Positions 23,343 through 56,000 of a DNA stretch of 64,000 bases are shown one piece after another. The DNA comes from an uncultured Verrucomicrobiota bacterium. GTDB taxonomy: Bacteria; Verrucomicrobiota; Kiritimatiellia; CAIQIC01; Lenti-01. The translations under genes and the position numbers were made by a program. Numbering within the stretch: the stretch's first letter is position 1; the number at the start of each line of letters is the position of its first letter. Below the pieces are notes generated by a model. The model ran no database searches. It saw only the letters and a list, made by a program, of their open reading frames with translations, and was not told the DNA's origin. The stretch covers positions 42,002 through 106,001 of the forward strand of contig CAYMTY010000003.1 of the NCBI GenBank assembly GCA_964393515.1, written 5' to 3'.

Positions 23343-25411
23343 GGCTGGCCTCCGGTTTCCGGAGCCAGCGGCAGCCGGATTTCAAACACGGCCCCCTCGC
23401 CCGGCGCCGAACGGGCCGTGACCTCACCCCCGTGGGCGCGCACCAGTCCCCGCACGATCGCCAATCCGAGCCCCAGGCCCGGCACCCGCGCCGCGAGACG
23501 GCGGTCGGCCCGAAAGTACGGCGTGAACAGGTGGCGCAGCGTGCGCGCATCCATGCCCGGCCCGTCATCGGCCACCTCCAGCACGGCCTCATCCCCGGCG
23601 CGGCGCAGCGCCAGGCGCACGTCCACCGGCCCGGCGCCGTGCTTCACCGCATTCTCGACCAGGTTGCGCACGATCTCCCCGAGCGCCGCGCGGTCGAATT
23701 CGCCGGCATAGGCGCCGGGCGCGAAGGTGAACGCCAGCCGGCCGGCGTCCACGCCGGTTTCGGCCGGCAGCCGGCGGACGATCTCCGCCAGCCAGTCATC
23801 CAGGCGGCCCGGCTCCCGGTCCAGCCGCATCGTTCCCGCGCGCTGCCGCGCGAAATCCAGCAGCCGGTCGCTGAGCCGCACCAGCCGCCGGACCTCGTCG
23901 CGCAGCAGGGTGCGCACCTGCGCGTCCGTGGCCGGCTCCGCCGCCGCGCCGCGCCGCGCCAAGGTGTCGGTCAGCACGGCCAGGGAGGCGATGGGGGTTT
24001 TCAACTCGTGGCTGATGCGGTCCACCACGTCGGCCTGCAACGCGGCGACGCGCAGCGAACGCCGCAGATAGGCGAACGGCAAGAGTAGCCCCAGCAGGGC
24101 CAGGATGACGGCGCCGCCCAGGAGCGCCGCCCGGGTTTTCGATTGCGAAGCCGCCAGCGTGGCCCACAGCGAAGCGGATTCCAGCCGGTATTGGAGCGCC
24201 CAGTCGTCCAACGGCGCCGGCAGCGGCTGGCGCATCGCGGCGGCGTCCCCGGTCCCCGGCCGGGCCGGCGTAATCCATTCGGCGCGGCCTCCCAACCGGG
24301 CCACCAGTTCGCGCCGCGCCGGCTCCAGCAGGCCGGCCCGCAGGGCCGCCGGGTCGCTCTCAAAGGCAAGCCGGGCGCCGCCGGGCAGCGTCGCGCGGGT
24401 ATCCACCAGCAACCGGGTTCCCCCGCTCACGGCCGCGGGCAACGGCACGGCCTCGAAATCGTGCTCCCCCGGGAAAGCGGGAAGCGGAAACGGCCCCGGG
24501 CCCTGTTCGCGGATGAAATTCTCGAGCGCGGCGCGGGCGGCCGCCAGCCGTTCCACCCGCTCCCGGGCCGCGCGCTGCTCCTCCGCCTCCGCTTCCGGCC
24601 AGGCCGGCAGGCGCGCCACCACGGTTTCGAGTTCATCGAGGCCCAGGTCCAGGCCGCGCTCTTCGCTGGCGGCCAGCAAGGCTTGGCCCCAGCGCCGGGC
24701 GCGGTCTTCGTCGCCGGCCTGTTGCGCCAGTTCAACGGCCTGCAGCAAAGGCAGCACCGGCGGCGCCTCGGCGGCCTCGGCAAACGCAGCCAGCATGCGC
24801 TCGTAATGATCCAGCGCCGCGGGCAGGTCTCCGAGTCGCTGCGCGCACCAGGACATTTCCGCCCACAGGGCGGCGCGCACGCCGGCCGGCGTGCGCGGTT
24901 CGGCCACCACCCGCCGGTAAGGCTCCAAGGCGCGCGCGGGATCGTTTTCCACCCACAGCGCGCGCCGGGCCGCCTGCAGGTCCGCCCGGGCCGGGTGCAC
25001 GGTTGACAGGCGCGGCAGGTCGTCCGCCGGCAGCCGGCCGGCCCGCGGCCCGACCAGCCGGCCCGCCGCATCCAGCGCCAGCACCGCCCGGATGCCGTCC
25101 CGTGCCAGTTCCGGCCGCTGCGCCTCGATCCAAAAGGCCGGGACGGACGGCGGCAGCGCGCGCAAGGGCCCCGCCGCCCGCGCCAGCCAGTTGTCCAGCC
25201 GGCGCCGGACCTCCCGGCCGGTGTCTTGCAATTCATGGCGGCAGGCCTCCCGCTGCTGCGCCCGGGCCGCCTCGTGCAGGCTGCGCACGCTCAACCAGGC
25301 CAGGAAGACCAGCAGGATGCACGGCGCCACGACAAAGACGACCAGCGCCGCCATCAGGCGCCGGACTTCGCGGCGGGAATATAGTTGCGCACCCATCGTG
25401 GAACCCAGCAT
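23339..25411 (-). CDS. Sensor histidine kinase with large TPR-like periplasmic domain
   Basis: TM, ~400-aa periplasmic region, H-box ISHELKTPIASL, HATPase_c N/G boxes. Confidence 0.85.
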   Translation of the reverse strand: MLGSTMGAQLYSRREVRRLMAALVVFVVAPCILLVFLAWLSVRSLHEAARAQQREACRHELQDTGREVRRRLDNWLARAAGPLRALPPSVPAFWIEAQRPELARDGIRAVLALDAAGRLVGPRAGRLPADDLPRLSTVHPARADLQAARRALWVENDPARALEPYRRVVAEPRTPAGVRAALWAEMSWCAQRLGDLPAALDHYERMLAAFAEAAEAPPVLPLLQAVELAQQAGDEDRARRWGQALLAASEERGLDLGLDELETVVARLPAWPEAEAEEQRAARERVERLAAARAALENFIREQGPGPFPLPAFPGEHDFEAVPLPAAVSGGTRLLVDTRATLPGGARLAFESDPAALRAGLLEPARRELVARLGGRAEWITPARPGTGDAAAMRQPLPAPLDDWALQYRLESASLWATLAASQSKTRAALLGGAVILALLGLLLPFAYLRRSLRVAALQADVVDRISHELKTPIASLAVLTDTLARRGAAAEPATDAQVRTLLRDEVRRLVRLSDRLLDFARQRAGTMRLDREPGRLDDWLAEIVRRLPAETGVDAGRLAFTFAPGAYAGEFDRAALGEIVRNLVENAVKHGAGPVDVRLALRRAGDEAVLEVADDGPGMDARTLRHLFTPYFRADRRLAARVPGLGLGLAIVRGLVRAHGGEVTARSAPGEGAVFEIRLPLAPETGGQP

Positions 25412-25424
25412 TCCATCCGGATGT

Positions 25425-25480
25425 TACCGGATTGTTACCGGAAATCCGCTCAAAAACATGCAAACGGTAACAATCCGGTA
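25425..25480. promoter_or_regulatory. Perfect 16-bp inverted repeat (TACCGGATTGTTACCG ... CGGTAACAATCCGGTA, 24-bp spacer) in the divergent promoter region
   Basis: Seen directly between the HK start (25411) and the phosphoesterase start (25526). Confidence 0.5.
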
Positions 25481-25525
25481 GCAATGAGATGGCAGGCTGG
25501 CCGCGGAAAACAAGGAGAACGGCCC

Positions 25526-28500
25526 ATGAAATCCATCCGATTCCCGCCGCGAATGCATATCGCCCTGCTGCTGGCCGCGGCGTGCGCCGCGGGTTCCGCC
25601 GAGGCCGCGCTCGTGCGCGGACCCTACCTCCAGATGGGCCATTTCACCAACCGGGCCACCGTGGTCTGGCGCACGGATTCCTCCGCCGACAGCGCGGTGG
25701 ACTACGGCCTCACCCCCGCCTACGGCATGACCGCCACCGGAACCAGCGGCTACCAGCACGAAGTGACGCTCACCGGCCTGGGGCCCGGCACCACCTACTT
25801 CTACCGCGTCCGCAGCGGGGGCGTCCCGCTCGCCACCAACAGCTTCCGCAGCGCCAAGGCCCCCGGCGCCCCCTTCCGCATCGGCGTCTTCAGCGACGCC
25901 CACCAGGGCGGCTCCGCCGCCATCGGCAACCTCCTCGCCCTGGTCGCGCCCGACCTGCTCCTCGCCGCCGGCGATGTCACCGACGACGGCCTCTATTCCG
26001 ACCTGGACAACAACCTGTTCTCGAAGATGGGCGCCGTCCTGGCCGCGGCGCCGCTCTACTGGACCCCCGGCAACCACGACGTCCGCGACGGCTTCGCCGC
26101 CTGCCGGGAGGCGTTCGTCCTGCCCGACAACGAACTGAGCTACTCGTTCGAATACGCCGACGCCCTGATCGTCTCGCTCAACGCCGAGGACCTGCCCGGC
26201 CCCGCCTGGCTCGCCTCCACCCTCGCCACTTCGTCCAAGCCGTGGAAAATCGTCATGTTCCACGAACCCGCCTATTCGCCCGACGGCGGCCACGGCGAGC
26301 ATGAAACCATTCGCGACCAGTACGTGCCGGTGATGGAGCAGCACGGCGTGCAGCTCACCCTCTCCGGCCACAACCACTTCTACTGGCGCAGCGCGCCCAT
26401 CCACGGCATCACCCATCTGATTTCCGGCCCGTCCGGCAACCGCACCCGCGAAACCGGCGGCATCCCCTGCTATTCCCAATGGGCGGTCAACGGCACCGCG
26501 GCCCAGACCTTCATCGTGCTCGACATCGCCGGCACCGTCCTGCGCATCCGCACCTACGACGCCCTCGGCAACTGCCTCGACGAGGCCGCCGTGGACCGCG
26601 CCTGCCCCTTCGCGCTGGACGGGCAGCTCGACGCCGCGGCCGCCCAGGTGACCGCCCGCGGCGGCGGCCAGACCCTCTGGGCCGCGCAATCGAACGGCTA
26701 TCTCTACGTGGCCACCCAGGACGCCGGCGAAGGCCAAGACGCCTTCCTCTTCCTCGCCAGCGCCCCCGACGCCCTCACCAACGCCGCCCCGTGGGGCAAG
26801 GCCGGAACCGCCCCGGCCCATGACGCGTTCCTCGCCGACGAAAACGACAACAACTACAGCCGCGGCTTCGCCGAGGACGGCCTGGCGGCCGATGTCGCCC
26901 TGGTGCGCACCGCCACGCCCTGGTGCAACGGCGGCGTGCTCGAAGGCGTGATCGACCTGAATGCCTATTTCGGCGGCGCCGTGCCGGATTCGGTCTTTCT
27001 GGCGGCCGCCCTCTACGCCAACGGCGCGGGCGGCGCGCTCAGCGCCGCTTCCCAATGCCCCGCCGGCAACGGCGACGCCAACCTCGACGCGGGCGAAATG
27101 TTCGAAATCGAGTTGGCCGACTCCGGCGGCCCAGCCGGGCCCGCCCCCGCCGCCACCTTCGCGCCCGCCGCCCCGGCTGACTGCGGCCAGCTCGCCGTCC
27201 TCTTCAACGCCGCGACCTCCGCCCTCGCCACCGCAACGACCGTCACCGCGTTTTATCATTTCTCCACCAATGACGACGACTGGGCCTCCGCCGCAATGAC
27301 CCGCACCGGCACCAACACCTTCTCCGTCACATTCGCCACCCTCCCCGACAATGCCCCCCAGTGCGAGGTCTGCTTCACCGACGGCGTCAACTGGGAGAAC
27401 AACGGCGGCGCCAACTGGCAGGTCGCCATCCGCGACTGCGAGGCGCCCCAGACCGTCGACGGCGTCACCCTGGTGCCGGGCGTGCCGGTCGCCGGCCACG
27501 CGGTCACCGTCACCTACAATCCCGCCGGCCGCCCCCTGGCCGGCGCCGGCGCCCTCAACCTCCACCGCGGCTACAACCGGACCGAGGGCTGGACCCCCGT
27601 GCCCGGCGTTTCCATGGCGCCGGCCGGCGCGGAGTGGACCCACACCTACACCATTCCCCCGGCCGCCACCGAAATCTCCCTGTGCTTCAACGACGGCACC
27701 ACTTGGGACAACCGCGGCGGCGCCGATTGGATCTTCGCCGTGGTCCCCAGCGACCTCCCGCCCGTGCCGGACGGCGTCGTCATCACGAATCCCGCCGCCG
27801 CCACGGTCCATGTCGCCCACGCCACCGCCCAGTTCGCCTGCCAGGGCACCGCCGGCACCAATCTGGCCGGACCGCTCTCCTGGACCAATCTCGCCACCGG
27901 CGGCGGCGGCACCTTCGCGCGCGAGTCGTATTGGCTGCAGGAGATCCCCCTCGCCCCCGGCGACAATGAAATCCGGATTGCCGGCGTCATCGCCGGCACC
28001 GAGGCCGGCAGCGCCACCGCGGCGGTGGACCAGGCCGCCGCCTATGCCGCCTGGACCAACGGCAGCGCCCAGGGCGCCGGGTGGAGCGACGGCTGGGCCT
28101 GCACCGTTGCCGGCGCGACCGCCGGGCACTTCCTCGATGCCGGTTCCGCGAACTGCTCCGCCGGCAACCCCGCCTTCGGGCTCTGGGCCAACGGCGGCGC
28201 CACCGCCCGCGCCCGGCGCAGCCTCGCCGAACCCCTGCAACCCGGCGACACCTTCTCCTGGCAGTTCGACAACAACTGGATCCAGGACGGCGGCTCCGCC
28301 GGCTTCTCCCTGGAAAACGCCGCCGGCGAACCCCTGCTCATCCTCTACTTCCTCGGCGGCGAACTCGCCTACAAGCTGCAGAACGGCGATCCCGAAATCC
28401 GCGACACCGGCATTTCCTGGACCGGCAGCGGCCTCGCGGTCGCGTTCACTTTAGATTCGGAAACCGGCTACACGCTCGCGCTCAACGGGGCCGCCTTCAC

Positions 28501-28927
28501 CGGCACCCTGGCCGCCGCCGCGTCCGGCACCGCCGTCCGCCAGTTCCAGGTCTGGAACTACAACTGCGGATCCGACATGGAACGCAACATCTACTTCAAC
28601 GACCTCCAACTCGTCCGCCCCGAACCGGGCGGCGGGGAGGCCTACAGCACCGCCACCCTCCACGTCGTCCGCGACGCGGACGGCGAACCGGCGCCCGTCA
28701 TCACCGGCCTCGCGGCGAGCGGCGCGGAAGGCCTGTGCTGCGGCCTTGCGGAAAGCGTCGCCGGCGCCGCCTACGCCATCTATGCCACCGAAACCCTGGC
28801 CCCCACCCAGAACTGGCAGGTGGTCGCCGGCACCGTCCAGATCGGCACGGGCGGCGCGCTGGAACTGCGCCTCACAAACGGCCTCCCGGCGGTCGGCTAC
28901 TACCGCATCGGCTTCACGCCCCCGTGA
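25526..28927 (+). CDS. Large secreted metallophosphoesterase (purple acid phosphatase-like N-terminus) with CBM-like repeats and Ala/Gly-rich C-terminal region
   Basis: Signal peptide MKSIRFPPRMHIALLLAAACAAGSAEA; AGGAG RBS; metallophos motifs (GDxxDxG as GDVTDDG, GNHD, GHNHFY); repeated W-x-N-x-G-G-A-N/D-W modules. Confidence 0.75.
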   Translation: MKSIRFPPRMHIALLLAAACAAGSAEAALVRGPYLQMGHFTNRATVVWRTDSSADSAVDYGLTPAYGMTATGTSGYQHEVTLTGLGPGTTYFYRVRSGGVPLATNSFRSAKAPGAPFRIGVFSDAHQGGSAAIGNLLALVAPDLLLAAGDVTDDGLYSDLDNNLFSKMGAVLAAAPLYWTPGNHDVRDGFAACREAFVLPDNELSYSFEYADALIVSLNAEDLPGPAWLASTLATSSKPWKIVMFHEPAYSPDGGHGEHETIRDQYVPVMEQHGVQLTLSGHNHFYWRSAPIHGITHLISGPSGNRTRETGGIPCYSQWAVNGTAAQTFIVLDIAGTVLRIRTYDALGNCLDEAAVDRACPFALDGQLDAAAAQVTARGGGQTLWAAQSNGYLYVATQDAGEGQDAFLFLASAPDALTNAAPWGKAGTAPAHDAFLADENDNNYSRGFAEDGLAADVALVRTATPWCNGGVLEGVIDLNAYFGGAVPDSVFLAAALYANGAGGALSAASQCPAGNGDANLDAGEMFEIELADSGGPAGPAPAATFAPAAPADCGQLAVLFNAATSALATATTVTAFYHFSTNDDDWASAAMTRTGTNTFSVTFATLPDNAPQCEVCFTDGVNWENNGGANWQVAIRDCEAPQTVDGVTLVPGVPVAGHAVTVTYNPAGRPLAGAGALNLHRGYNRTEGWTPVPGVSMAPAGAEWTHTYTIPPAATEISLCFNDGTTWDNRGGADWIFAVVPSDLPPVPDGVVITNPAAATVHVAHATAQFACQGTAGTNLAGPLSWTNLATGGGGTFARESYWLQEIPLAPGDNEIRIAGVIAGTEAGSATAAVDQAAAYAAWTNGSAQGAGWSDGWACTVAGATAGHFLDAGSANCSAGNPAFGLWANGGATARARRSLAEPLQPGDTFSWQFDNNWIQDGGSAGFSLENAAGEPLLILYFLGGELAYKLQNGDPEIRDTGISWTGSGLAVAFTLDSETGYTLALNGAAFTGTLAAAASGTAVRQFQVWNYNCGSDMERNIYFNDLQLVRPEPGGGEAYSTATLHVVRDADGEPAPVITGLAASGAEGLCCGLAESVAGAAYAIYATETLAPTQNWQVVAGTVQIGTGGALELRLTNGLPAVGYYRIGFTPP

Positions 28928-28940
28928 CGTCTCGCCGCGT

Positions 28941-28981
28941 TTTTCCACACGGTGGAAAAATATTTTCCACGGTGTGGAAAA
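28941..28981. repeat. Two tandem 19-bp palindromes TTTTCCAC-N3-GTGGAAAA (same family as the 51224-51378 array)
   Basis: Seen directly between convergent gene ends; followed by a CTCCGC flank as in the larger array. Confidence 0.55.
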
Positions 28982-28993
28982 CTCCGCCCGCGG

Positions 28994-29806
28994 CTACCAG
29001 AAGCGCCAGAAATGGTGCACGGGGCCGTGGCCCTGGCCCAGGCGGTAGTCCGCCCCCGCGCGGATGGCGCCGGCGATGTACTCCTTGGCATTGCGCACGG
29101 CGACTTCGATGCCGGCCCCCTGTGCCAGGTTCGCGGCGATGGCCGAGGACAGCGTACAGCCCGTGCCGTGGTTGTTGCGGGTCTCCACCCGTACACCCGG
29201 CAGGCGCACGATGCGCTTCTCTTCCCCGAGATACAGGCAGTCGTCGCTGCCGCCGCCCGCAAGATGGCCGCCCTTCACCAGCACGTTTTGGCAGCGGAGC
29301 CGGGCCAGTTCGGTCGCCGCGCCGGGCAGTTCGTCGAGCCGTGAAATCCGGTGGCGCAGCAGCTCTTCAGCCTCTGGAATATTCGGCGTCAGGATCTCCG
29401 CCAGGGGGATCAGGAAACTGACCAGCGCGGCCACGGCGTCGTCTTGCAGCAGCCGGTCGCCGCTCTGTGCGATCATCACGGGATCGAGCACGATGTGCGC
29501 CACTTGGTGATCCCGGAGCTTCCGCGCCACGGTTTCGATCAGCTCCGCCGAGTAGAGCATGCCGATCTTGACCGCATCCGCCCCGATGTCCGCAAGCACC
29601 GCATCAAGCTGCTGCGCCACGAACTTCACCGGCACCGGGTGGATCCCCGCCACGCCCTGCGTGTTCTGCGCGGTCAGCGCGGTGATCACGCTCAGGCCGT
29701 AGCACCCGTTGGCCGCGATGGTCTTCAGGTCGGCCTGGATGCCGGCTCCGCCGCCGCTGTCCGAGCCTGCAATCGTCAGCACCCGCCGATAGGTTTTACT
29801 GCTCAT
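28994..29806 (-). CDS. thiD: Hydroxymethylpyrimidine/phosphomethylpyrimidine kinase
   Basis: ThiD/PdxK ribokinase-like motifs (GSDSGGGAGIQADL, C-terminal GTGCTLSSAIAA). Confidence 0.9.
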   Translation of the reverse strand: MSSKTYRRVLTIAGSDSGGGAGIQADLKTIAANGCYGLSVITALTAQNTQGVAGIHPVPVKFVAQQLDAVLADIGADAVKIGMLYSAELIETVARKLRDHQVAHIVLDPVMIAQSGDRLLQDDAVAALVSFLIPLAEILTPNIPEAEELLRHRISRLDELPGAATELARLRCQNVLVKGGHLAGGGSDDCLYLGEEKRIVRLPGVRVETRNNHGTGCTLSSAIAANLAQGAGIEVAVRNAKEYIAGAIRAGADYRLGQGHGPVHHFWRFW

Positions 29807-50303: not shown

Positions 50304-50352
50304 TTTTGGTTTTTTGTTTCTCCCGCCTGCCGCCGTCCGCTACACTGACTGC

Positions 50353-51204
50353 ATGAACCCGAACGCCCTTGCGCCCTACCTCGACCGCACCCTCTGGGCC
50401 GGCTCCTCGTTCAGCCTGACCCTGGGCGACGCCCTACTGGCCGCCCTGCTGGCCGCCGGCGGCTGGGCTGTCAGCCGTCTGGCCGCGGCATTCGTGGCCA
50501 AGCGGCTCGCCGTCCGCCTGCTGCATTCCCCCCGCGCGCGGGATCTCGCGCCGCGCTGGACCTTCTTCTTCCTGTGGGCGCTCTTCATCCTCGCCGCCCT
50601 GCGCGTCCTCGGCGTGCCGCTCACCCTGTTCCAGTTCCTCGGCGGCGCCATCGCCCTGGGCTTCGGCTTCGGCGCGCAGAATCTCTGCAGCAACCTCATC
50701 AGCGGCGTCATCATCCTCGTTGCCCGCCCCTACCGCGCCGGCGACATCGTCGAGGTCGACAACCAGGCCGGCACCGTCCTCTCGATCGGCCTGCGCGCCA
50801 CCGAAGTCCGCACCTTCGACGGCATCAACCTCGTCGTTCCCAACTCCAATTTCCTCTCGAACACCATTGTCAACCGCACCAACTACGAGCGCGCCCTGCG
50901 CGGCCTCGTCACCCTCACCGCCGCCTACGGGTCCGACTCGCGGCTCGTCGCCGAAACCCTTGCCGCCGTCGCCGCCGCCCACCCCGCCGTCCTCACCGCC
51001 CCCGGCCGGGCCCCCTGGGTCATCTTCGACGACTTCGGCGCCCACGGCCTCGTGTTCAAGCTCTTCTTCTGGGTCGACACCACCCGCGCCAGCGTCGCCG
51101 CCACCGCCAGCGACATCCGCCACGCCGTCCTCGAAGCTTTCCGCGAAAAAGGCCTCGCCATCCCCCTCCCCCAGCTCGACGTCCACCTCCCCAAGGCCCC
51201 GTGA
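50353..51204 (+). CDS. mscS: Small-conductance mechanosensitive channel (MscS family)
   Basis: 3 TM helices then the MscS beta-domain (GDIVEVDNQAGTVLSIGLRATEVRTFDGINLVVPNS). Confidence 0.85.
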   Translation: MNPNALAPYLDRTLWAGSSFSLTLGDALLAALLAAGGWAVSRLAAAFVAKRLAVRLLHSPRARDLAPRWTFFFLWALFILAALRVLGVPLTLFQFLGGAIALGFGFGAQNLCSNLISGVIILVARPYRAGDIVEVDNQAGTVLSIGLRATEVRTFDGINLVVPNSNFLSNTIVNRTNYERALRGLVTLTAAYGSDSRLVAETLAAVAAAHPAVLTAPGRAPWVIFDDFGAHGLVFKLFFWVDTTRASVAATASDIRHAVLEAFREKGLAIPLPQLDVHLPKAP

Positions 51205-51223
51205 GCCCTTCCCACCACCAGAG

Positions 51224-51378
51224 TTTTCCATGCTGTGGAAAAAAGTTTTCCATGGCGTGGAAAAATCCCGGAAAAGTTTTCCATGGCGCGGAAAAAACAG
51301 CCCTGTTTTTCCACACTGTGGAAAATATTTTTCCATGGCGTGGAAAAACCGCAAAAAAGTTTTCCATACTGTGGAAAA
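51224..51378. repeat. Array of six 19-bp imperfect palindromes TTTTCCAY-N3-GYGGAAAA with irregular 3-12 nt spacers (not CRISPR)
   Basis: Seen directly: units at ~51224, 51246, 51277, 51307, 51329, 51360. Each unit is two inverted TTTTCCACA-like 9-mers; the array is followed by CTCCGC. Confidence 0.6.
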
Positions 51379-51665
51379 CTCCGCTTTCCCGCCCGCCGTC
51401 CGCAGGACGTGGATGCCGGGGGTTTCTTTTGGATATTGACGGCGTCCCGCGTAAAAATAACCTGCGGATTTTTCGGAGATGCCGCTTCGCGGACGACCCG
51501 AGCAGGACTCCCGTCCGCGAGCGGTCGGCCTCAAAGCGGCAGAACGAAAAAGACGCGGGTTGGTTTTTACGCCCGACAAAATCCGAAAGAAATCCCCGCC
51601 CCTTCCCCCTCCGCTCCACCCCGCACTCCAGCCAACGCCGCCACCCCGCCGCCGCCTGACCCGCC

Positions 51666-53420
51666 ATGCTCCACCTCCTCCCAGCCCCCGCGTCCCTGCA
51701 GCTGCGCGACGGAACCCTGACTCTCCCGGCGCCGCCGACGGCCTGCGTCCCCGACCACCTCGACCCGCGCGTGGGCAAGGTCCTGCACGAGCTCTTCCCC
51801 GGGCTCCACCACATCGCCTGTCGCCAGCAGCGCGCCGCCCTCCGCCTCGAAACCGCGCCCGGCGCCCCCGAGGCCTACCGGCTGCGCATCACGCCGGTAT
51901 GCCTGGAAATCACCGCTGCCGGTGCCGCGGGCTTCTTCTACGCCCTGCAAACCCTCCGCCAGATCCTTCCGCAGAGCGGAGGCGCCTTGCCCTGCCTGGA
52001 GATCGAAGACGCCCCGGTCTTCCCCCTGCGCGGCTATTCCCTCGACGTCAGCCGCGGGCGCGTCCCGCGCCCGGAAATGCTCCAGCGCCGCATCCGCCTG
52101 CTGGCCAGCCTCAAAATCAACCACCTCCAGCTCTATTTCGAGCACCCCTTCCGCTTCCGCTTCGATCCGGACATCGCCGGCGCGGACGACGCCTACGACG
52201 CCGACGACCTGCAGGCGCTGGACACCTTTTGCCGCGAGCATTTCATCGAACTCGTCCCTTCCTTCACCTGCTTCGGCCACCTCGGCCGCATTCTTTCGCT
52301 TCCCCAGTACCGCGAGCTGGCCGAGGTCGAATTCCCGGCGCCTTCGTGGGCGGCCGCCACCTGGCGCCAGCGCCTGCACGGCGCGACCCTCAACTCCCGC
52401 GACCCCGACGCCCAGGAACTCCTGCGCCGGATCCTCGCCGAATTCCTCCCCTGTTTCTCCTCTTCCCGCTTCAACCTGTGCGGCGACGAAACCTACGACC
52501 TGGGCCGGCGCATGCCCAACGCCGCGCCCGCCGACCGCGCCCGCCAGTACACCGACCACATCCGCTTCCTGCAGAAGGAAGCCGCGCGCCACGGCAAGTC
52601 CCTCATGCTCTGGGGCGACATGCTCCTCCACCACCCCGACGCAATCTCCGCCCTGCCCGAAGGCTGCGAAATCCTCGACTGGGCCTACTTCCCTTCCAAC
52701 AAATTCGAAAAATGCGGCGAGTTCATCACGCGCGGCCTGGCCACCATCGTCTGTCCCTCCGTCCGCGGCTTCGGCCGGGTTTTCCCGGCGGTCGAAGAGG
52801 CCCGCACCGTCATCGCCGCCTACGCCCGCACCGGCCGGCGCCTCGGCGCGCGCGGCCTGCTGAACACTGACTGGGGCGACTACGGCCACTTCAACCTGCC
52901 CCCCGGCGCGCTCCACGGCCTCGCCCTCGGTGCACACCTCGCCTGGAATCCCGCCCACGACGAAACGGAAGCCTTCGACGCCGCCTTCTCGAAAATCCTT
53001 TTCGGCGCGGAGGACTTCCGCCCGGCCGGCCTCTTCCTGCGCGCCGGCTCCGTCCCGGAAAACCTCGCCGCCTGGCCCTTCCCGCCGCTCAAGGACCTCC
53101 CGCTGCCCGCCGACCCCGGCCCCGCACGCCATGTCGCCGAACAGGCCCCGCTCTGGGCCGAGGGCTTTGCCAACCTCAAACCCACCGCCTGGGCCGACGA
53201 AACCGATCTCGCCCAGCTCGCCCTCGCCTGCCGCTTCCTCCAGTTCAACGCCCTGGTCGCTTCCGGCGCCCCCGCCGGAAAAACCCGCCCGTTGCTCGAC
53301 GACCTCGAAAAGGCCTATACCCCGCTCTGGTTCGCCGAAAGCCTCCCCCGCGGCCTGCTGGACATCCATTCCCGCGGCTTCGAACCCATGCGGGCACTTT
53401 TGGATAAAGGCGTCACTTAA
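51666..53420 (+). CDS. GH20 beta-N-acetylhexosaminidase (cytoplasmic; no signal peptide). Its last codons are supplied by the inserted islet
   Basis: LEIEDAPVFPLRGYSLDVSRG (GH20 catalytic-domain start); catalytic region NLCGDETY (HxGGDE-like). Confidence 0.75.
   Translation: MLHLLPAPASLQLRDGTLTLPAPPTACVPDHLDPRVGKVLHELFPGLHHIACRQQRAALRLETAPGAPEAYRLRITPVCLEITAAGAAGFFYALQTLRQILPQSGGALPCLEIEDAPVFPLRGYSLDVSRGRVPRPEMLQRRIRLLASLKINHLQLYFEHPFRFRFDPDIAGADDAYDADDLQALDTFCREHFIELVPSFTCFGHLGRILSLPQYRELAEVEFPAPSWAAATWRQRLHGATLNSRDPDAQELLRRILAEFLPCFSSSRFNLCGDETYDLGRRMPNAAPADRARQYTDHIRFLQKEAARHGKSLMLWGDMLLHHPDAISALPEGCEILDWAYFPSNKFEKCGEFITRGLATIVCPSVRGFGRVFPAVEEARTVIAAYARTGRRLGARGLLNTDWGDYGHFNLPPGALHGLALGAHLAWNPAHDETEAFDAAFSKILFGAEDFRPAGLFLRAGSVPENLAAWPFPPLKDLPLPADPGPARHVAEQAPLWAEGFANLKPTAWADETDLAQLALACRFLQFNALVASGAPAGKTRPLLDDLEKAYTPLWFAESLPRGLLDIHSRGFEPMRALLDKGVT
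53281..53392. repeat. 112-bp direct repeat, left copy (3' end of the GH20 gene); identical copy at 56675-56786
   Basis: Exact 112-bp identity seen directly (AAACCCGCCCGTTGCTCGACGACCTCGAAAAGGCCTATACCCC...CGAACCCATGCG). Confidence 0.85.
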
Positions 53421-53558: not shown

Positions 53559-55124
53559 TCACGGCCCGACACGGACGCGGTAATGCCCCATGGCGTTCGT
53601 GTCCGGAGGAAGCGCCAGAAATGCCGGTTTCGCCGTGGGCGGCAGGTTGGTGAATACCACTTCCCAGCTCGTGCCCGTGGCCGTCAAATCCACGCACCGT
53701 TCCAGATATTGCGTGGCCCGGCTGCCTCCCATCCAATTCACCCGGAATTGGTCGTTGGAAGCATCCACCCCCAGCATCGCCAGCCGCGAATCGGACTGCG
53801 TTGGATCGGTATCCGCCCGGACTTCCGCGCCGTCCGGCATGCCGTCCCCGTCGGAATCCGCCGCTGGATTCAGATATTCATAGGCACCCATGTCCATGAT
53901 GGCCACGCCATCGGCATTGCCGTCCAGCGGTCTCGGCACTCCGGCCAAATCGGCGCCCGGCGCCAGATCGGCATTGCTCCCCGCATCGATGCACGGGGAG
54001 TTCGACTGCAACCGGTAATCCCCAGCCACAAAATTGGTTCCGGACCAGTTGCCGGGATCGATGAATACCGGATCGTTCGTAATATTGCCCGCCCCATTCG
54101 TCGGCATCGGCACGGTACAGCAATTTATGAATATTCCATTGGAATAGTTATTTCCCCAATTCATGTAGACGATGCTGTTTAGCTGCGTACTGCAGGATGT
54201 GCCTCCGGCTCCCCACCGACCACTCTGGTTTCCAACAACCGTACAGTTGTTTAAAATGCATCTGTCCGCCCCTAATTGGTTGTTTACAACAATGCAATTG
54301 TTCAGTGTCGCTACACATCCCCCACTTCCCCAATTATTTACCAGTATGCAATTGTTTAGCTCAGATTGAGCCCCGCCAGCACAAAACACACCCCCACGGC
54401 CGTGGTTGTATGAGAATACACAGTTATTAATTACGGAATGTATAACAGTCCCAGAACCCAGATTTGTGTTGAAAAGAAAAAAGCAGTTGAAACACATACC
54501 CGATCGGACGGCACTACCAGTATAGCCAATATTATTCGTAAAAGTACAATCGATCATGGTCCCTCCGAAAGCAGCACCACCACGCCATGCTGCATTGCAT
54601 GAGAAGATGCAATTGGATACGATTACATTTGTGCCCTGACACCAGATTCCGCCACCATTCTCTTCTGTACCATTATTATCATTAACGGACGTTGAACCCT
54701 GGGCCAGCGTGAATCCAACAAGTGAAGCCCCATTTGTCAACCATACGCATCTCACTGAGTTGGGCCCCAAATTAAATACATATACTGTTGGATAATTTGT
54801 ACCCATAATCATGGTCGAATCCGGCCCATTCACCGACCGCAACGTAAGCGGCTTGTCGATCACGACCCGATTCGTAAGTGTGAAAACACCACCCGCCGGA
54901 CGTCCGCCCTTATCATAAATGCCGTTGGTGACCCAAACGGTATCGCCGGCGGCGGCGGCATCGATGGCGGCTTGGATGGTCTGCTTGGCGTTGGCCCACG
55001 AAGTGCCCGCGCCGGCATCGCTGCCCGAAGGCGAAACAAAGAACTCCGCCGCCCAAAGGTCAACCGCCGCCGCCAGCATGATTATCCAACCGATGGCATA
55101 ATAATGATTTCGGTTCCGGCTCAT
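53559..55124 (-). CDS. Secreted right-handed parallel beta-helix repeat protein (adhesin/lyase-like fold)
   Basis: Signal peptide; FVSPSGSDAGAGTSW...AAAGDTVWV N-terminal motif; many NN[CV] beta-helix rungs; Asp-rich calcium-binding-like segment; lower GC. Confidence 0.55.
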   Translation of the reverse strand: MSRNRNHYYAIGWIIMLAAAVDLWAAEFFVSPSGSDAGAGTSWANAKQTIQAAIDAAAAGDTVWVTNGIYDKGGRPAGGVFTLTNRVVIDKPLTLRSVNGPDSTMIMGTNYPTVYVFNLGPNSVRCVWLTNGASLVGFTLAQGSTSVNDNNGTEENGGGIWCQGTNVIVSNCIFSCNAAWRGGAAFGGTMIDCTFTNNIGYTGSAVRSGMCFNCFFLFNTNLGSGTVIHSVINNCVFSYNHGRGGVFCAGGAQSELNNCILVNNWGSGGCVATLNNCIVVNNQLGADRCILNNCTVVGNQSGRWGAGGTSCSTQLNSIVYMNWGNNYSNGIFINCCTVPMPTNGAGNITNDPVFIDPGNWSGTNFVAGDYRLQSNSPCIDAGSNADLAPGADLAGVPRPLDGNADGVAIMDMGAYEYLNPAADSDGDGMPDGAEVRADTDPTQSDSRLAMLGVDASNDQFRVNWMGGSRATQYLERCVDLTATGTSWEVVFTNLPPTAKPAFLALPPDTNAMGHYRVRVGP

Positions 55125-55158
55125 GCGCTTCCTCCAAAGAAATGCCCCACCAGTCTAT

Positions 55159-55992
55159 TCATTCGGCCATAAGAATTCCAACGAAAGTTGCCGAGATCGC
55201 GCGGCAAACCTCGGCAAACTCGATATCCTTGGCATAATCGAAATCCCGGCGATAGGTCTTCCAGCGCCCGGCCATGACCGCGCTGGCTTCGATTGCCCGC
55301 ATGATTTCCTTGTGCTGTTTCAGCAACTGAAACGTGCCGCGGCGCCTGGCGGTCGCCGGCAACGCCTTCCGCAGGACTTCCCAATCGATTTTCCAGGCAT
55401 ACAAGCGCCGCAACAAATGAACGTCGTAGAAGTCCCGCATCCGCGTGTTCAGATCGCCCCGCGCCAAGATGGTTTCCAGTTTCTCCGCCAGGATGGTTTC
55501 CAGGTTGTAGGCCAACACCCGGATGGCGCGCGATCCGGGCCGGACCGGATAATCGAACGGCATTTCGCGCGGCGTGATCTTGTCGCCCGTCGTGAGGTCT
55601 ACCTTCAAGGGCACCGCCATGGGCGGGCATTTCGCCTCCAGCGACAGCCGCAGACCGCCGTATTCGTCGCCTTGCCGGATCTCTTCGAGGCCCTTCACGG
55701 CGAACGAGACTCCGTCGTCGATCCGCACGGCGCAGATATCCCGGAACATCCGCCGAACGCCGGCGGCGGTGACCGGCATCCGCCGGATGGTTCCGTCCAT
55801 GTCCATCGTGGTCCGCGTGTCGAGTCCCGCCAGGGCGGAAATCAGCAATCCGCCCTTGAGAACGAAGTTCCGCCGATAGTTGGACAGCGAGATGCGCTCC
55901 AGCAACCGCTCCAACATGTGGTTTTGGAGGGCCAGCTGCGCGGAAATACCCTTTTTGCGCGCCACCATTTTCATCCGGGCCTTCAACTGCAT
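55159..55992 (-). CDS. AbiEii/AbiGii-family nucleotidyltransferase toxin (type IV TA / abortive infection)
   Basis: DUF1814-like sequence (VLKGGLLISAL...DMDGT...) with an NTase-fold GS...D.D motif; immediately downstream of the AbiEi-like gene. Confidence 0.7.
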   Translation of the reverse strand: MQLKARMKMVARKKGISAQLALQNHMLERLLERISLSNYRRNFVLKGGLLISALAGLDTRTTMDMDGTIRRMPVTAAGVRRMFRDICAVRIDDGVSFAVKGLEEIRQGDEYGGLRLSLEAKCPPMAVPLKVDLTTGDKITPREMPFDYPVRPGSRAIRVLAYNLETILAEKLETILARGDLNTRMRDFYDVHLLRRLYAWKIDWEVLRKALPATARRRGTFQLLKQHKEIMRAIEASAVMAGRWKTYRRDFDYAKDIEFAEVCRAISATFVGILMAE

Positions 55993-56000
55993 CGCCGGCT

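Follow-up and report, generated by a model that had tools for sequence, protein, structure and literature searches.

Bacterial interspersed mosaic elements (BIMEs) are dispersed, mostly extragenic palindromic units joined by linkers of fixed length, whose copy number varies at conserved positions and for which a role as mRNA hairpins has been proposed. The Rickettsia palindromic elements (RPEs) are single elements of ~100–150 bp in an obligate intracellular alphaproteobacterium. Clusters of DnaA boxes, such as oriC, datA and the DnaA-reactivating sequences DARS1/2 of E. coli and the clusters of Bacillus subtilis, are few per genome, consist of individually oriented boxes and depend on the box sequence. 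Repetitive extragenic palindromic (REP) units are defined by a length of 20–40 nt and a stem of 5–13 bp, and include two superfamilies that carry GTAG and CGTC tags (Di Nocera et al. 2013, PMC3733652). REP families of 20–100 units, with clusters, G-T stem pairs, intragenic copies and in some cases no dedicated transposase, have been documented, including in the verrucomicrobium Opitutus terrae (PMC3733652). Here we describe an array of six short palindromes between the genes for a small-conductance mechanosensitive channel (mscS) and a glycoside hydrolase of family 20 (GH20) in a 64,000-nt stretch of DNA from an uncultured Verrucomicrobiota bacterium (contig CAYMTY010000003.1; the whole stretch is referred to as the window). 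This array probably represents one locus of a clade-specific, dispersed family of REP/BIME-like palindromic repeats, a new family, rather than a replication origin, a datA-like sink or a gene-specific operator. The family is dispersed over genomes, keeps its positions across species, varies in copy number and exists in two arm dialects with hybrids between them; no link to particular genes or to dnaA emerged, and no gene for a REP-associated tyrosine transposase (RAYT) was detected in the loci searched.

The palindrome array in the mscS–GH20 spacer

The array consists of six 19-nt units of the form TTTTCCAY-N3-RYGGAAAA at positions 51224–51378, which were recovered by reading of the sequence, by a repeat finder and by a pattern search. 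The original prediction had described six 8-3-8 palindromes with gaps of 3, 12, 11, 3 and 12 nt between mscS and the GH20 gene, and both this arrangement and the positions of the two genes were confirmed. The units start at 51224, 51246, 51277, 51307, 51329 and 51360, and five of the six fit TTTTCCAY-N3-RTGGAAAA; the third (51277) reads GCGGAAAA and is covered by the GYGG consensus that the prediction had proposed. A search of the window with TTTTCCAYNNNRTGGAAAA, allowing up to two mismatches, gave eight matches, compared with none in 100 dinucleotide-preserving shuffles.

The array is built from an 83-nt stretch with three units that is duplicated in tandem, and it consists of two 72-nt three-unit modules (spacing 22 and then 31 nt) that lie 83 nt apart and are 83% identical. 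Unit 1 (51224–51242, TTTTCCATGCTGTGGAAAA) has a T..G closing position and TTTTCCACA as its minus-strand arm, and unit 2 (51246–51264, TTTTCCATGGCGTGGAAAA) lies 3 nt 3' of it. Unit 3 (51277–51295, TTTTCCATGGCGCGGAAAA) is degenerate in that its arms mismatch at one position; it is preceded by the 12-nt linker ATCCCGGAAAAG, which belongs to the A-rich type of the family. The second module is opened by unit 4 (51307–51325, TTTTCCACACTGTGGAAAA), a perfect 9-1-9 palindrome, and continues with unit 5 (51329–51347, again TTTTCCATGGCGTGGAAAA) 3 nt 3' of it and, after the 12-nt linker ACCGCAAAAAAG, with unit 6 (51360–51378, TTTTCCATACTGTGGAAAA). The array begins 19 nt past the stop codon of mscS (50314–51204, plus strand), and the GH20 gene (51666–53420, plus strand) starts 288 nt past the array end. 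A second site at 28941–28981 contains two units 3 nt apart, TTTTCCACACGGTGGAAAA and TTTTCCACGGTGTGGAAAA, which start at 28941 and 28963 and are wedged between the stops of a convergent phosphoesterase-like open reading frame (ORF; 25385–28927, plus strand) and thiD (28994–29806, minus strand); both this site and unit 6 are followed by CTCCGC.

The predicted RNA fold of the array has an energy of -77 kcal/mol over 196 nt (z = -7.5), with units 1+2 and units 4+5 forming 19-bp hairpins. An Rfam search of positions 50500–52500 at E-values up to 1 returned only chance microRNA-like matches on the palindromes, no tRNA or tmRNA was detected at the array locus, and matches to sigma-70 promoters and terminators at the locus were no commoner than in shuffles.

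Dispersal of the family across genomes

We scanned one genome per species for two units 5–19 nt apart and found the two-unit pattern in at least 111 genome stretches, at least 99 of them in ~30 metagenome-assembled genomes (MAGs) labeled Kiritimatiellia, Verrucomicrobiota, Lentisphaerae or Opitutia. Among the matches listed, 12 of the 111 stretches (Bacteroidales, Prevotella, Streptomyces and others) have different motifs and represent noise, at least nine loci fall into a single MAG, and the nearest relative is MAG ADurb.Bin018. The collected loci, designated below by L numbers, contain 393 units in total. In addition, ten loci were fetched via MscS homologs (55–90% identity), blind to repeats, which removes the bias of selection by the repeat itself. 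Outside the mscS–GH20 site, these loci and the window hold ~1 array per 100 kb, and the estimate derived from this density suggests some 30–50 arrays per genome. The original prediction had included a REP-like hairpin family among its candidates, and this possibility is supported by the dispersal, by the two sites within 64 kb and by the at least 99 loci in ~30 MAGs, to which 87 loci of a sister dialect (see below) are added; of the hundreds of scattered intergenic copies that the prediction had named as grounds for rejecting its DnaA-based idea, the scatter was borne out, at a scale of dozens of arrays per genome.

Several metagenome contigs end in or beside arrays, e.g., L114 (234 nt past mscS), L144 (inside the array) and L115 (positions 1–138, at a degenerate unit downstream of thiD), suggesting that the repeats break short-read assemblies and that the counts per MAG are underestimates. 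Among 2.9 million viral contigs in IMG/VR, two related contigs matched (L112 10040–10120 and L113 3820–3900); both carry the same three-unit module just 3' of a stop codon, which gives no indication that the family came from phages, and they may represent prophage or host DNA of the array-bearing clade. Our literature search found no relevant description of the motif or of palindromes in Kiritimatiellia, and neither this search nor the Rfam scan turned up an earlier account of the family.

Conserved geometry of units and modules

Each unit is composed of T4, a 4-nt arm core, a 3-nt center, the complementary core and A4, giving 19 nt with a stem of 7–8 bp. The 753 kb of loci contain 299 instances of TTTCCA-N5-TGGAAA; other loop lengths between 0 and 11 nt are absent except for one 7-nt case, and the five central bases are C-R-S-Y-R or its complement. 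Within the 20–34 nt range that the seed pattern allowed, start-to-start spacings of 22 nt (n = 99) and 31 nt (n = 95) dominate, with few at 30 or 32 nt and none at 23–28 nt. Arrays hold two to eight units, with pairs 3 nt apart, and 106 of 115 are internally one-directional. We recognized 48 three-unit modules of 72 nt, one of which is the second half of the window's array. Oriented by their spacing, they read [CCAC..GTGG]-3-[CCAT..GTGG]-12-[CCAT..GTGG]: a C..G unit (positions 8 and 12) is followed by 3 nt, in most cases A/T-rich, and then by a T..G unit, which a 12-nt linker rich in A separates from another T..G unit. The linker follows only a loose consensus, ATCGCGAAAAAG, and all 48 linkers differ in sequence, whereas arm positions 3–7 and 13–17 are 98–100% constant among units chosen for at most two arm mismatches. 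Thus, the modules are not recent copies of each other, and something holds the arms constant.

Units also bear the mark of the genome in which they reside. Identical loops are shared by units at different loci three times as often within one genome (0.21) as between genomes (0.07), and genome-specific arm variants occur, such as TCTTCCA..TGGAAGA in JAVEUJ and GTTTCCA..TGGAAAC in CAZGMQ. Among arrays with unambiguous gene calls, 37 lie between co-directional, 11 between convergent and 7 between divergent genes. The direction of an array, judged from its T..G or C..A asymmetry, is unrelated both to the strand of the flanking genes (18:13) and to local GC skew (15/15/17/17).

In some arrays (L001 ~2710–2730, L003 ~3545–3568 and L082 ~553–575 and ~726–748) the linker is longer and reads (a)gtt(c/t)atcccgcg(t/c)gggcggga, with TTTT after it. 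It forms a GC-rich hairpin with a T-run and resembles a classical intrinsic terminator inside the array.

Array positions are conserved between species

Array flanks from different species match each other at 66–88% nucleotide identity in their coding parts, defining at least 11 groups of orthologous sites. The spacer downstream of mscS holds four to six units in L114, L115, L116, L118, L120 and L121, seven units in L082, one unit in L119 and, in L117, three units of another palindrome dialect. No units were found in this spacer of L122 and L123, two distant, lower-GC loci (55–57% MscS identity) that also have no neighboring GH20 gene. In the relatives the array starts 16–47 nt past the mscS stop codon. 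The unit spacing in L115 (22-31-30-22-31) is that of the window, and in L118 (10884–11007) the array is inverted relative to the other orthologs, with C..A units and a spacing of 31-22-30-22. The distance from the end of the last unit to the GH20 ATG is exactly 8 nt in five species (L082, L115, L118, L119 and L121), which places GGAAAA at the position expected of a ribosome-binding site; those 8 nt differ in sequence. Comparable short gaps between array and gene were seen at pheS (L087 and L097) and after an ORF with a YidD domain (L099). A difference in presence was observed as well, with an array in L179 and a plain 90-nt spacer at the same site in its relative L028.

Replacement of the arm sequence at conserved sites

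The other dialect in the mscS–GH20 spacer of L117 (10853–10934) is represented by three TTTTACGTTCTACGTAAAA units, of the form TTTTACGT-TCT-ACGTAAAA, which replace the TTTTCCAY units and retain the T4 and A4 ends, the 3-nt center, the ~31-nt spacing and the kind of linker found in the CCAY dialect. A metagenome scan for two TTACG-N5-CGTAA (TTTTACGT-type) units revealed 87 further loci (L124 onwards) with 231 units, 135 of them spaced by 31–32 nt; the loci come mostly from few samples, and, counted from the scan table, at least 22 and at least 28 of them belong to two single metagenomes. At 13 sites the flanks of second-dialect arrays match those of CCAY-dialect loci, with the arrays at the corresponding point. 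For example, the mscS site holds the second dialect in L205 and the first in L114, although the mscS flanks of the two loci are 91% identical.

The two dialects also meet within single arrays. Hybrid arrays were found in L065 (5173–5243), L144 (1566–1699, the mscS site), L131 (2357–2490) and L157, an array of this kind was also recorded at the mscS site of L205, and chimeric units exist with one arm of each dialect, TTTTACGT-N3-GTGGAAAA. Judging from the sequence, RNA from the T..G strand of a chimeric unit could still form the stem, with two G-U pairs and a single mismatch, and such a unit is, on paper, a possible intermediate in a change from A-U through G-U to G-C at positions 7 and 13.

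In-frame arrays within genes

A subset of arrays lies inside protein-coding genes. We accepted an intragenic location only where domain homology was present on both sides of the array, and on this basis we recognized at least three in-frame arrays, which occupy three gene families (dihydroorotase, nucleotidyltransferase and a DppB-like permease) and add 14–62 residues, e.g., FHSVEKSFPQCGK. In L013 (4921–5013) and its ortholog L105 (5019–5059), whose proteins share 68% identity over 447 residues, the array interrupts the dihydroorotase between ...HAEDER and HHLRRPRAAV...; a dihydroorotase gave the best PDB match (E = 9e-45). An in-frame stretch of 51 nt accounts for the difference in length between the arrays, and the 41 nt that they have in common (palindromes and linker) are identical at 39 of 41 positions, compared with 76–78% for the flanking coding sequence in the group. 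In L075 (3764–3949) an array of 62 codons splits a nucleotidyltransferase domain, and in L015 (4386–4457) the array falls in the loop that connects membrane segments one and two of the DppB-like permease.

It should be noted that a crude gene caller based on GC content at third codon positions placed 42 of 115 arrays inside ORFs, several of which turned out on checking to be over-extensions of start codons. Because most reading frames of the units lack a stop codon, several long ORFs of this caller read through intergenic arrays. When the array-encoded peptides were compared with a collection of 5.8 billion proteins, only 11 short hypothetical ORFs made of translated units were found, in a search whose sensitivity was limited by the word index.

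A REP/BIME-like family as the most plausible explanation

The features of the family agree with those of REP sequences, namely a short palindromic unit (19 nt with a 7–8 bp stem), dispersed and mainly extragenic copies, dimers, clusters and intragenic copies. They also agree with the organization of BIMEs, since unit types follow each other in fixed order with linkers of fixed length, which is a likeness of architecture and not a homology to the Y and Z units of E. coli. Constant arms, diverged linkers, strict geometry, genome-specific variants and the replacement of dialects at fixed loci point either to a sequence-specific trans-acting factor that would recognize the units or to a copying process that would add units beside existing ones at a fixed distance. 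Most arrays are situated in spacers that would be transcribed, i.e., after stop codons, between genes of an operon or between convergent genes, and are predicted to form hairpins; occasional arrays sit in frame inside genes. Co-transcription of mscS and GH20 is probable because the spacer of most relatives is filled by the array, which would then be part of their common transcript and fold into hairpins between the two cistrons. By analogy with what has been proposed for REP and BIME sequences, the hairpins of units 1+2 and 4+5 could alter the stability of mRNA 3' ends or decouple the expression of mscS and GH20.

Several observations weigh against this explanation. Neither tblastn with an E. 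coli RAYT query nor a HUH...Y motif revealed a RAYT (Y1/HUH transposase) in ~1.5 Mb of array-bearing loci, an approach that could miss distant homologs, and position frequencies in the flanks of the units revealed neither a GTAG nor a CGTC tag. The copy number of dozens per genome is low for a typical REP family, and the unusually stable positions, together with near-invariant arms and diverged linkers, speak for selection acting on the sequence and not for a recent selfish spread. In a genome of 68% GC the stems are weak and AT-rich; at the innermost pair (positions 8 and 12), 179 Watson-Crick combinations were observed where 205 were expected under independence; and array orientation has no bias for gene strand or GC skew. 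These three properties are equally compatible with recognition as duplex DNA and with hairpins. The outer pairs covary weakly (10 G1-C19 combinations observed compared with ~3 expected, and 5 C2-G18 compared with ~0.7), which, together with the deficit at positions 8 and 12, keeps duplex binding alive as a rival.

Alternative explanations

Under the duplex-binding alternative, the arrays are phased sites for a clade-specific dimeric protein, e.g., a nucleoid-associated or chromosome-organizing one, that oligomerizes along one face of the helix, with dialects reflecting a changed or duplicated specificity. Besides the pairing deficit and the neutral orientation, it would account for near-invariant arms next to variable loops and linkers, for AT-rich arms in a GC-rich genome, for half-sites 11 bp apart and units 22, 31, ~42, 52 and 62 bp apart (near whole helical turns, although a degenerate unit is hidden within some of the 51–62 nt spacings) and for chimeric units that act like independent half-sites, even if by our reading of their sequences these can still pair via G-U wobbles on one strand. 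Chromosome-organizing proteins typically have a few dozen sites per genome, and the arrays form a few dozen positionally conserved sites. This alternative is nevertheless rather doubtful: it lacks a candidate protein, the in-frame arrays of 41–186 nt in enzyme genes resemble insertions rather than evolved binding sites, and the sharing of loops and linkers within genomes and the differences in presence between relatives require a copying process beyond selection. Less probable still is a role at the RNA level only, in which the array would either terminate transcription after mscS, as an intrinsic or a bidirectional element, or form a hairpin that controls the translation of GH20. The placement of the array suits such a role, as its start lies 16–47 nt past the mscS stop codon in all relatives and in five of them exactly 8 nt separate its end from the GH20 ATG, and the pair at 28941 sits between convergent stop codons; the predicted hairpins are strong, ACTTTTT follows the units in one orientation, and a linker in L001, L003 and L082 combines a GC-rich hairpin with a T-run. 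However, a terminator scan flagged one unit of the array, compared with a mean of 1.3 in shuffles, and an intrinsic terminator was rejected for stems that have 3 G-C among 8 pairs, with the T-run on the 5' side and an A-run, not a T-run, following the stem. A single hairpin would be enough for termination, yet arrays contain 2–8 units; termination does not require an invariant arm sequence, and arrays also occur within ORFs and in divergent spacers, oriented independently of transcription.

Regulation of replication, which the original prediction had put forward as a DnaA-titration or replication-control locus, is very improbable. A DnaA-box cluster that titrates or reactivates DnaA (datA, DARS) or belongs to a replication origin was suggested by TTTTCCACA, which fits TTWTNCACA: all six matches to this pattern in the 64 kb fall inside units (0.8 matches expected), ~62% of the family's units have at least one such 9-mer according to the loop table, and binding in vitro is probable if the DnaA of this clade has the usual specificity. 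But of the up to 12 half-sites claimed for the array, just four match (51234–51242, 51317–51325 and 51370–51378 on the minus strand and 51307–51315 on the plus strand), as do two of the four at 28941–28981, and the remaining ones read TTTTCCATG, TTTTCCATA, TTTTCCACG or TTTTCCGCG. No isolated DnaA boxes were found outside the palindromes in the window. TTTTCCA is over-represented there (29 occurrences compared with 3.8 in shuffles), and its isolated copies were rejected as monomeric boxes: they are mostly intragenic with unrelated continuations, and none equals TTTTCCACA. The suggested check of GC skew and dnaA position spoke against an origin or a datA-like role, as the skew does not change sign at the array, being negative throughout 44–64 kb, and tblastn with E. 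coli sequences detected no dnaA, dnaN, gyrB, rpmH or rnpA in the window or in 111 array-bearing loci, the sole match in the searches for origin-linked genes being one YidD in L042. In addition, the loci number in the dozens per genome, some arrays are found within ORFs, and the orthologous spacer of L117 and 87 other loci have non-box TTTTACGT arms with the architecture unchanged; the dialect switch already largely refutes a DnaA-based explanation. The 148 proteins encoded beside arrays represent 170 Pfam families, none of them enriched except through orthologous groups, e.g., that of pheS. An operator array had also been raised originally, for a dimeric regulator; for a regulator that is gene-specific, it is unlikely because of this diversity of neighbors, the convergent spacers and the sites inside ORFs, and was rejected as no coherent gene set lies beside the arrays.

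Other features of the locus

The 288 nt between the array and GH20 contain a separate, near-perfect long hairpin of ~180 nt (51417–51598), for which folding of 211 nt gives -110 kcal/mol (z = -7.3). In L116 the hairpin is conserved: compensatory changes affect 10 of the 79 predicted pairs, none is broken, and the central 62 nt are identical; the beginning of the element is also visible in L114, and it is absent from most orthologs, where the array abuts the GH20 ATG. The hairpin has no Rfam match and was never seen in more than one copy, in the window or in any locus examined, and metagenome contigs contain no exact copy of its core. Either a regulatory RNA acting in cis on GH20 or an inserted palindromic element is conceivable. 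Further downstream, the region 54001–56000 has a GC content of 0.55, compared with ~0.68 elsewhere in the window, and overlaps an ORF of 521 amino acids (53559–55124, minus strand) with matches to beta-helix and bacterial TSP3 repeats; this region may be recently acquired DNA.

Implications

Our analysis removes a tempting but wrong annotation, that of a DnaA-titration site, and adds a well-defined palindromic repeat family to the poorly studied Kiritimatiellia of the Planctomycetes-Verrucomicrobia-Chlamydiae (PVC) superphylum. Its single loop length, its two spacings, the conservation of its positions, its two dialects with intermediates and its in-frame copies make the family a good system for studying how REP-like sequences are maintained and homogenized without a recognizable RAYT, and it is equally suited to testing the roles of mRNA hairpins and of protein-binding sites. 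On the practical side, ORFs that read through arrays mislead gene callers. A more speculative proposal, which we hold only tentatively, is that the arrays are cis-sites maintained by the host for an unrecognized clade-specific factor that co-evolves with them, marking ~30–50 conserved operon junctions, often 8 nt before a start codon. If true, this would constitute a new system of operon punctuation or chromosome marking, and the replacement of TTTTCCAY-N3-RTGGAAAA by TTTTACGT-N3-ACGTAAAA at 13 orthologous loci, by way of hybrid arrays and of chimeric units still able to pair through G-U wobbles, would be a natural experiment on the genome-wide change of a recognition sequence.

Comparison with known repeat systems

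Among the described systems, CRISPR arrays are likewise made of regularly spaced, partly palindromic direct repeats. The original prediction had excluded CRISPR, and correctly so: the repeats here measure 19 nt (compared with 23–50 nt), their "spacers" of 3 or 12 nt are semi-conserved, the units are small and dispersed, there is no relevant Rfam match, and no cas families appear in the gene lists of the ten loci around mscS. With DnaA-box clusters the array shares the clustering of 9-mers that fit TTWTNCACA in a non-coding spacer; it differs in its obligatory 8-3-8 palindromes, its many loci and the dispensability of the box, which is TTTTACGT in L117. RPEs are similar to the intragenic arrays in being palindromic repeats inserted in frame within protein-coding genes, where they add peptide segments, whereas the family described here consists mostly of intergenic arrays of 19-nt units.

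The closest counterparts are the REP sequences. The GTAG and CGTC superfamilies (PMC3733652) resemble the present family in their stems of 5–13 bp, short loops, dimers (1–2 bp apart in those superfamilies), clusters and G-T pairs, in their intragenic copies (which add 20–82 residues there) and in the existence of CGTC families without a dedicated transposase. Unlike them, the units described here carry neither tag, and TTTTCCA/TGGAAAA does not appear in the supplementary tables of PMC3733652. The REP units of O. terrae differ as well in being GC-rich, as judged from the peptides that they encode (e.g., VGPALAAG). Because the family is unlisted in PMC3733652, has no tag and was found with no RAYT, we assign it as a new REP/BIME-like family and not as a member of a tagged superfamily. 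Relative to the REP and BIME sequences of E. coli, the units are shorter (19 nt), near-perfect and AT-rich instead of GC-rich, without a GTAG-type tag or a detected RAYT, and are present in dozens rather than hundreds of copies, with one arm sequence kept across ~30 species. What the two have in common is the clustering of unit types with fixed linkers in transcribed spacers and a variable copy number at conserved positions.

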